Source: Escherichia coli
GTDB taxonomy: Bacteria; Pseudomonadota; Gammaproteobacteria; Enterobacterales; Enterobacteriaceae
Strand: one strand, 5' to 3'
Assembly (NCBI RefSeq): GCF_017348835.2
Contig: NZ_CP071375.1
DNA: 64,000 nt
Part shown: one piece after another, positions 56,611-57,092 of the stretch
Position numbering within the stretch: the first letter of the stretch is position 1
Layout: every line of letters starts with the position of its first letter
Made by a program: the position numbers and the translations under genes
The notes under the pieces: model-generated
Seen by the model: the letters and a program-made list of their open reading frames with translations, nothing else
Database searches by the model: none
Told to the model about the DNA's origin: nothing

Positions 56611-56904
56611 TTTCGTCTTCCTCTCAACGAGTGAGCTAGCTTGCTTATGGTGCGATGCTGACAAAGTTATCACACCAATTTCCAGAGTCCGAAGATATTT
56701 TCGTGAGTTAGATCAATAAACGTAGTTAAAAAAATTACTCTCAAAGTGGTAAATCTCGCTGCAGGCCGCGCCAGTACTGGCCTCGCTGTCGTCAGGTAAT
56801 GTCCCTACAAATATTCGCACATTTGTGATGGCTCTCACCTTTTAAAGTTGTATGACAAGTTATCTTTCTGCCGTCGCAAATCATAAGTCGACGGAATGCA
56901 AATT

Positions 56905-56933
56905 GCCGATTCATTCATTTGTTAGATGAATCG
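56905..56933. promoter_or_regulatory. Palindrome in the uxaCA/exuT divergent control region (candidate ExuR/CRP operator or RNA hairpin)
   Basis: ccgattca...tgaatcgg 8-bp inverted repeat with 13-bp spacer, followed by ggttaacc palindrome; assignment to a specific regulator is inference. Confidence 0.3.
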
Positions 56934-57092
56934 GGTTAACCGGTACGGAAGCCGAATTAGCACGAAACTTTCATGGCAACGTTCGGGGCGTGCCGGTTTT
57001 TTTTCGGTTACCCGGTCGTAACTAACATCTTCAGCCTCTGGCGGGATGATGGCCGCGCTTCCTGCGGATATAACAAAACGATGAGGTTTTAC

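Follow-up and report, generated by a model that had tools for sequence, protein, structure and literature searches.

The large palindrome between uxaC and exuT of Escherichia coli is probably the first stem-loop of a conserved exuT leader RNA

Our comparison supports a model in which the divergent control region between the uxaC and exuT genes of Escherichia coli carries its regulatory DNA sites elsewhere than in its large palindrome, and in which this palindrome is probably the first stem-loop, H1, of a structured leader RNA upstream of exuT. The region occupies positions 56611-57092 of the window, a stretch of 64,000 nucleotides from contig NZ_CP071375.1 in whose coordinates all features are given. 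An earlier reading of the letters alone, hereafter the sequence-only reading, had described it as a divergent uxaCA/exuT control region of about 480 bp in which the large palindrome and a smaller one, GGTTAACC, serve as operators for ExuR/UxuR and CRP. RefSeq annotation places the ATG of uxaC (minus strand) at 56610 and that of exuT (plus strand) at 57093, so the interval is exactly the 482-bp uxaC/exuT divergent intergenic region. The source of the window is E. coli: over 581 bases there are 2 single-nucleotide differences from MG1655, and positions in NC_000913.3 are obtained by adding 3188131. Of 5,426 complete E. coli genomes, 5,419 match a 701-base query around the region, with identities of 99% or more in nearly every case, and 5,418 contain the interval itself at 99% identity or more. 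The control region is already known and is ordinary, textbook material; the five-hairpin leader is described neither in Rfam nor in the searchable literature and is modestly new.

The evidence for this model is comparative. We assembled 80 Enterobacteriaceae loci encoding ExuT; uxaC lies divergently upstream of exuT in 78 of them, the intergenic length is confined to 455-486 bp, and the 79 distinct intergenic regions were aligned with MAFFT. Leaders were folded and aligned as a set of 49 non-redundant sequences, and covariance-model alignments comprised 81 loci. Phylogenetic footprinting separates DNA sites, in which the sequence is invariant, from an RNA stem, in which the sequence varies while the pairing is kept. 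Four blocks of the alignment are nearly invariant (56661-82, 56698-720, 56822-38 and 56840-64), and both palindromes are situated in the least sequence-conserved stretch of the region. That the palindromes are there was correctly noted before: CCGATTCAT (56906-14) is repeated perfectly over 9 bp, in inverted orientation and after a gap of 11 nt, as ATGAATCGG (56926-34), and GGTTAACC is found at 56934-41. Perfect inverted repeats of at least 9 bp with loops of 3-20 nt appear in 11 of 500 dinucleotide shuffles of the region, which places the large palindrome mildly beyond chance. Perfect 8-bp palindromes number 3, against 2.1 expected per shuffled region, and because 184 of the 500 shuffles have as many, GGTTAACC is not beyond chance. 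At its position other genera have ATTGACC, ATTTAAC or ATTTACC; it is a chance palindrome confined to Escherichia.

As plus-strand RNA, the large palindrome (56906-34) folds into a stem-loop of nine Watson-Crick pairs and one G·U pair, with a folding energy in E. coli of -12.2 kcal/mol (z = -3.8). In the plain MAFFT alignment, which was fitted to no structure, 7 of 7 tested pairs carry substitutions in both partners; pairing holds in 89% of cells and drops to 16-46% after a shift of the 3' partners by 1-3 columns. The covariation score was reached by none of 500 shuffles, and another alignment gives the same picture. Individual folds place a hairpin at this position in about 45 of the 49 leaders, with stems that differ from genus to genus (CCGAUG/CAUCGG, CCGGUG/CACCGG, CCGACG/CGUCGG, UUGAUGG/CCAUCAA, GCGAUG/CAUCGC and UGCCAG/CUGGCA); in E. 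coli an insertion specific to its lineage, about 10 nt long, lengthens the stem. A·C mismatches are fewer than G·U pairs, 12 against 22 in H1 and 77 against 149 in the helices downstream, and this excess of G·U, about two to one, points to a structure on the exuT sense strand. Since the pairing persists while the sequence drifts, H1 has the signature of an RNA stem and not of a protein operator, and the alignments argue that exuT has a conserved, structured leader RNA whose first stem-loop takes, in E. coli, the form of the large palindrome.

Four further plus-strand hairpins follow. H2 (56941-54; CGGU-ACGGAA-GCCG, or CGGUACGGAUACCG in most genera) presents GGA in its loop and is paired in 99% of cells; two of its pairs are invariant and one changes from U-A to U·G in 7 sequences, and because the sequence is almost invariant it offers no covariation to test. 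H3 (56979-57019) is a two-tier hairpin with an outer GGG/CCC helix, an inner CCGG/UCGG helix and the U-run as its loop. In the covariance-model alignment 5 of 6 pairs of the inner helix have changed on both sides, with 86% of cells paired, and the outer helix is paired in 89%. H4 (57026-51; CAUCUUC/GGGAUGAUG) is built of two segments, of 5 and 3 pairs, and both partners have changed at all 8 when the alignment is fitted to the model and at 7 of 8 in the plain MAFFT alignment. In H5 (57053-67; CCGCG/UGCGG) both have changed at 4 of 5 pairs, with 96% of cells paired; H4 and H5 covary on the plain alignment too. Taken together, the inner helix of H3, H4 and H5 have such double changes at 17 of 19 pairs. 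R1, a covariance model built on H3-H5, finds exactly one match in each of 81 Enterobacteriaceae sources and no second match in the 64-kb window. Its alignment has 18 of 24 pairs double-changed and 148 compensatory cells (46 ± 6 in shuffled and 29-50 in slid controls), and 84.6% of its cells are paired versus 41-50% when slid. RNAalifold on the raw MAFFT alignment, in which loops are misaligned, recovered H2 only, and local alignments and the covariance model were used for this reason. A search of Rfam 15 over 56300-57400 returned no covariance-model match at E <= 1 on either strand.

Two of the DNA sites are of ExuR type and lie in the nearly invariant blocks 56661-82 (AAAGTTATCACACCAATTT) and 56840-64 (AAAGTTGTATGACAAGTTATC). 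On the uxaC side the putative operator is AAAGTTATCACACCAATTT, an imperfect palindrome of the GntR/FadR type at 56663-81; on the exuT side it is AAAGTTGTATGACAAGTTA, with a TTGT-N3-ACAA core, at 56844-62. Both are invariant in the 79 regions. A position matrix for ExuR, trained solely on the sites upstream of exuR and uxaB and therefore outside the region, was used to score 63,982 window positions; it gives the exuT-side box 14.3 bits (rank 3) and the uxaC-side box 12.4 bits (rank 4). The exuT-side box is the only perfect TTGTNNNACAA in the window and closely resembles the box upstream of exuR at 58474-92, and both resemble the exuR and uxaB boxes. The consensus of ExuR/UxuR operators is reportedly AAATTGGTATACCAATTT. 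Like the operators of the hexuronate regulon, which belong to the FadR subfamily of the GntR family, the two boxes have A-rich arms around a GT-N3-AC core, match the exuR and uxaB boxes and are invariant across genera; the palindromes, unlike these, have no such arms, reach only background scores and vary between genera, and do not belong to the group. The uxaC-side box and the module formed by the exuT-side box and the neighbouring CRP site are also retained in Pantoea, Dickeya, Pectobacterium and Yersinia, from four other families of Enterobacterales. Because the gntP/uxuA spacer was the only target that UxuR, purified and used alone, picked out in genomic SELEX (systematic evolution of ligands by exponential enrichment; PMC5934670), the likely repressor of the uxaC/exuT region is ExuR rather than UxuR, with predicted binding at 56844-62 and 56663-81. 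A literal search of the searchable literature for the operator sequences found nothing relevant. As a separate observation, the box just upstream of exuR (AAAGTGGTATAACAAATAT, 58474-58492) is the best matrix match in the window, a position that would be consistent with autoregulation.

The documented CRP site of exuT, listed in RegulonDB, is ATTTGTGATGGCTCTCACCTTT at 56821-42. Its core, TGTGATGGCTCTCACC at 56824-39, has one mismatch to TGTGA-N6-TCACA, and in the corresponding block (56822-38, TGTGATGGCTCTCACC) the half-sites are conserved and the spacer is variable. The string atattcccacATTTGTGATGGCTCTCACCTTTtaaagttgta is quoted from RegulonDB as the exuT CRP site (PMC5772556 Table S1), and exuT was activated 9.2-fold by cyclic AMP in quantitative PCR (PMC5772556). 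A second, CRP/FNR-like site, CGTGAGTTAGATCAAT at 56702-17 on the uxaC side, is nearly invariant with a variable spacer and falls within block 56698-720; a published FNR peak from chromatin immunoprecipitation sequencing (ChIP-seq), centred at 3242850 of U00096.2, corresponds to about 56696 in the window, 13 nt from this block, and the coincidence may reflect dual control. As in CRP-dependent class I and class II promoters of sugar catabolism, the near-consensus site at 56824-39 lies 41.5 or about 62 bp upstream of the candidate starts described below, and a repressor box directly adjoins it; the region differs from them in having the second CRP-like site where FNR has its ChIP-seq peak, and in that the start of exuT considered here is a predicted one. 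Thus the part of the sequence-only reading that placed ExuR-type and CRP control in this region holds, and the part that equated the palindromes with those sites does not: the motif scan it had proposed picks other sites with both the ExuR matrix and the CRP consensus. Elsewhere in the window, the gene ygjV, downstream of uxaA, contains in its 5' part TTGTGATACCAATCAGA (53553-53569), which has one mismatch to the CRP consensus and is ExuR half-site-like; it could be an internal or ygjV-specific control site, or chance.

Two candidate -10 elements for exuT lie between 56861 and 56887 on the plus strand. With the invariant TATCTT (56861-66), transcription would begin near 56873, placing CRP at -41.5 and ExuR over -29 to -11. 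With CATAAG (56882-87), whose counterpart in other genera is TATAAG or TATAAA, it would begin near 56894, CRP lying at about -62 (-61.5/-62.5) and ExuR over the -35 region. The hairpins are all on the 3' side of the exuT CRP and ExuR-type sites and of both -10 candidates. Either candidate start would put H1-H5 inside a leader of 200-220 nt, and the sense-strand covariation of H1-H5 independently requires transcription through the hairpins. A further hairpin at the start region, H0 (CCGTCG 56871-76/CGACGG 56889-94), was rejected, its 5' arm being invariant and its 3' arm varying without compensation; the sequence is more likely promoter or start-region DNA. A promoter-like match on the minus strand (56909 to 56880) was also set aside, one such match being found where 0.9 is expected by chance.

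How might such a leader act? Of the mechanisms considered, the one we prefer, and hold only tentatively, is attenuation by a switch between hairpins and a terminator in the E. coli clade. In addition to H1-H5, the plus-strand leader can adopt a terminator-like fold at 56938-57004, in which a 10-bp base pairs AACCGGUACG (56938-47) with CGUGCCGGUU (56989-98), an inner helix pairs CCGAAU with GUUCGG, and a run of eight U (U8) follows at 56997-57004. The 3' half of GGTTAACC is part of the 5' arm of this long-range helix. The fold is the minimum-free-energy and centroid structure in E. coli (-24.8 kcal/mol, z = -2.2) and is mutually exclusive with H2 and H3. When either fold was forced in the 49 leaders, the long-range fold was more stable, by 1-9 kcal/mol, in 8 of the 10 that carry the U-run (Escherichia, Citrobacter, Salmonella, Trabulsiella and Intestinirhabdus) and in only 7 of the 39 that do not. 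Its helix is paired in 74% of cells versus 27-34% when slid.

At the level of transcription, uxaC is probably served by the ExuR-type box at 56663-81 and the CRP/FNR-like site at 56702-17, and exuT by its documented CRP site at 56821-42 and the ExuR-type box at 56844-62 that directly adjoins it. Since the exuT-side box overlaps the predicted core promoter, ExuR bound there would keep RNA polymerase out until released by hexuronate; cyclic AMP-CRP would activate exuT transcription. Under attenuation, polymerase in the Escherichia/Citrobacter/Salmonella clade would pass through a leader in the fold with H2 and H3 and would be stopped, 88 nt before the exuT start codon, by the long-range fold (56938-47 with 56989-98) and the U8 after it, and the leader, as an attenuator, would set the share of CRP- and ExuR-licensed transcription that reaches exuT. 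The arrangement recalls known attenuators and riboswitch platforms (the pyrBI, thr and trp leaders; the flavin mononucleotide and thiamine pyrophosphate riboswitches) in having two exclusive folds, of which one closes with a G+C-rich helix and U8 ahead of the start codon, and blocks serving both pairings that are the most conserved. It departs from them in lacking a conserved leader peptide and any Rfam match to a known aptamer, in the unusual length of its terminator hairpin (about 60 nt with internal loops), and in a U-run that is present in one clade only and has no 3' end in Term-seq under repressing conditions.

Several observations weigh against the leader model or against attenuation within it. 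The whole 231-nt leader folds no better than shuffles (z = -0.87), so the evidence for it is comparative and not thermodynamic. The 5' end of the leader is one that we infer: no exuT leader start is among the matches listed in the Cappable-seq, SMRT-Cappable-seq and Kim 2012 supplements, and the start in RegulonDB seems to lie elsewhere, because the PredCRP rule set misclassified the CRP site by its position. The ExuR boxes are proposed from motif and conservation. The R1 model has no match in Pantoea, Dickeya, Pectobacterium and Yersinia, where the promoter module is conserved. The long-range helix has no significant covariation, both of its arms being highly conserved, and blocks that serve two pairings are expected to be conserved in sequence, as observed here. 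The link between U-run and fold stability could stem from a single evolutionary event, the U-run being confined to one clade. A terminator consensus scan does not call the long-range fold, whose loop exceeds the limit of 8 nt; exuT is not listed in a published catalogue of predicted attenuators; and published Term-seq data (Adams 2021) contain no 3' end in the exuT leader, under non-inducing conditions in which exuT is repressed. No CsrA peak was found on exuT by crosslinking immunoprecipitation sequencing (CLIP-seq), in an experiment in which exuT was poorly expressed (PMC5694010).

Two observations stand beside these. Term-seq does place a 3' end inside exuT in two conditions, at window position 57814 (NC_000913.3 3245945), 721 nt into the gene (PMC7815308 supplement). 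And Pantoea, Dickeya, Pectobacterium and Yersinia, which retain the uxaC/exuT-exuR order, have long but unrelated exuT leaders of about 150 to 350 nt, so that a long leader seems to be a general feature of exuT with a family-specific sequence.

Next to attenuation among the mechanisms, and less likely than it, is the possibility that the leader hairpins, H1 included, form a platform for binding or stability through which CsrA or an Hfq-dependent small RNA alters the decay or translation of exuT mRNA, much as CsrA acts on the flhDC leader. With the same low probability, the candidate single-stranded blocks containing GGA would be GACGGAAUG near the 5' end, ACGGAA in the loop of H2, and GCGGAUAUAACA after H5. 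A GGA displayed in the loop of the almost invariant short hairpin H2 favors this proposal, as does a second conserved ACGGA about 50 nt upstream; these CsrA-site-like motifs are conserved at 56891-95 and 56945-49. The leader of flhDC is said to carry two CsrA sites near its 5' end, one of them in a hairpin loop. The exuT leader resembles this CsrA-bound leader in its two conserved ACGGA motifs about 50 nt apart, the second in a hairpin loop, and is unlike it in lacking a CLIP-seq peak, CsrA being a candidate binder here. In a csrA mutant, ribosome footprints (-0.80) and translation efficiency (-0.61) of exuT are flagged as significantly changed and its mRNA is not (PMC5694010 supplement; the sign convention of these values is unchecked), which again speaks for a platform, and a platform would account for the retention of the leader in genera that lack the U-run. 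The missing CLIP-seq peak counts against this proposal as well, as does a Shine-Dalgarno sequence, GAGG, that contains no GGA, and the searchable literature holds no link of exuT to CsrA, Hfq or a small RNA. We note separately that an 8-mer, CGGAUACC, occurs both in UCCGGAUACCUAA of the uxuA leader (MG1655 gntP-uxuA spacer, 2562-2578) and in the H2 region of the exuT leader in most Enterobacteriaceae (UACGGAUACCGAA); CGGAUACC was not accepted as a shared hairpin-loop element, since in the uxuA leader it falls outside hairpin loops in the minimum-free-energy fold, and the match may be coincidence.

More doubtful still is an RNA switch that responds to a factor or metabolite, in which a protein site or binding pocket made up of the invariant junctions CGGUACGGAUACCGAAUUAGCAC and AUGGCAAGGUUCGGG would select the hairpin fold or the long-range fold. 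If such a switch existed, premature termination at U8 would be decided in E. coli, Citrobacter and Salmonella, adding an RNA-level checkpoint on top of ExuR and CRP that possibly senses an intermediate of the hexuronate pathway.

We regard it as very unlikely that the hairpins have no function and are neutral structure in a long spacer, their covariation arising from shared ancestry and alignment. Related sequences may exceed shuffle controls without any structure, the folding energy of the full leader (z = -0.87) is unremarkable, and the leader is not conserved outside the Enterobacteriaceae, all of which would fit such an origin. The slid-partner controls, however, preserve relatedness and give 16-50% pairing as compared with the 85-93% observed; at every H1 pair several pair types occur independently (AU 26, GC 10 and GU 8 at one position, for instance); leader length is constant to within about 25 nt over dozens of genera; and four hairpins covary independently.

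Least tenable, and already largely refuted, is the view that CCGATTCA...TGAATCGG and GGTTAACC are DNA operators for ExuR/UxuR and CRP dimers: although both are real palindromes inside a regulatory region and one UxuR-type box upstream of uxuA, TGTGGTTAACCAATTT, likewise has GGTTAACC as its core, the two palindromes vary between genera, unlike protein operators and unlike the four invariant blocks, the arms of the large one change together as in the evolution of an RNA stem, and GGTTAACC occurs at chance frequency. Neither has the A-rich arms of ExuR/UxuR operators. In the ExuR matrix the large palindrome (CCGATTCA...) scores 0.75 bits and GGTTAACC (56934-41) 5.6 bits, rank 197 of 63,982, both background values beside the 14.3 and 12.4 bits of the ExuR-type boxes, and a consensus search of 56906-41 found no TGTGA-N6-TCACA match within two mismatches, the documented CRP site lying at 56821-42 instead.

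The comparison also bears on where exuT begins. The mechanical open reading frame, 56973-58391 (472 aa), covers the last 120 bases of the region, as the sequence-only reading had seen, and its judgement that this extension is non-coding agrees with the alignments. An in-frame ATG extension of at least 30 codons is present in 13 of 79 sequences, the Escherichia version being the 40-codon one (56973-57092, plus strand); the ATG at 56973 is absent in about 10 of the 49 leaders, and indels break the frame, their lengths not being divisible by three. All 79 sequences retain the ATG at 57093, which has GAGG seven bases upstream. This ATG belongs to a nearly invariant translation-initiation region, AUAACAAAACGAUGAGGUUUUACAUG (57069-95, plus strand), with the Shine-Dalgarno GAGG at 57083-86. 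Older annotation of exuT was long (1419 nt, versus 1302 nt in Klebsiella), and RefSeq now starts the gene at 57093. A leader peptide or upstream open reading frame beginning at the ATG at 56973 or 56926 was rejected, since neither a conserved start codon nor a Shine-Dalgarno sequence is present and the reading frames differ.

Hexuronate uptake is important for gut colonisation. The value of these findings is in part corrective, in that palindromes in a promoter region are not to be equated with operators. As a by-product they provide a testable, covarying five-hairpin leader before the hexuronate transporter gene in E. coli, Salmonella, Klebsiella and relatives. The ExuR/exuT promoter has been employed in biosensors (PMC10294642). 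Unrecognised control after initiation in the native leader, if true, could affect both physiology and sensor design.

The region contains one more conserved element, CCGCGCCAGTACTGGC at 56766-81, which includes a perfect 12-bp palindrome, GCCAGTACTGGC; in shuffled regions, palindromes of this length are expected at a rate of 0.13 per region. Nearly all 79 sequences preserve the arms of the element, CCGCGCCA and CTGGC, but differ at its centre, a pattern suggestive of a protein site, and the element is absent from Pantoea, Dickeya, Pectobacterium and Yersinia. A sigma-54 reading of the central CTGGC element was rejected on direct reading of the sequence because the spacing is wrong.

Downstream, the spacer between exuT and exuR holds a textbook terminator hairpin at 58423-58445 (GCCGCCT-TCTC-AGGCGGC, then TTTTT) that the terminator consensus scan misses, probably since the AAA/TTT on either side carries the stem on into the T-run. 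The next gene after exuT is exuR, both in the window and in K-12. E. coli ATCC 8739 (NZ_CP022959.1, locus 5980-8701) has instead a fimbrial cluster on the opposite strand directly 3' of exuT, encoding a tip adhesin of the CfaE/CblD family and an usher-like protein with a TcfC domain, which suggests an insertion or rearrangement between exuT and exuR in that strain.

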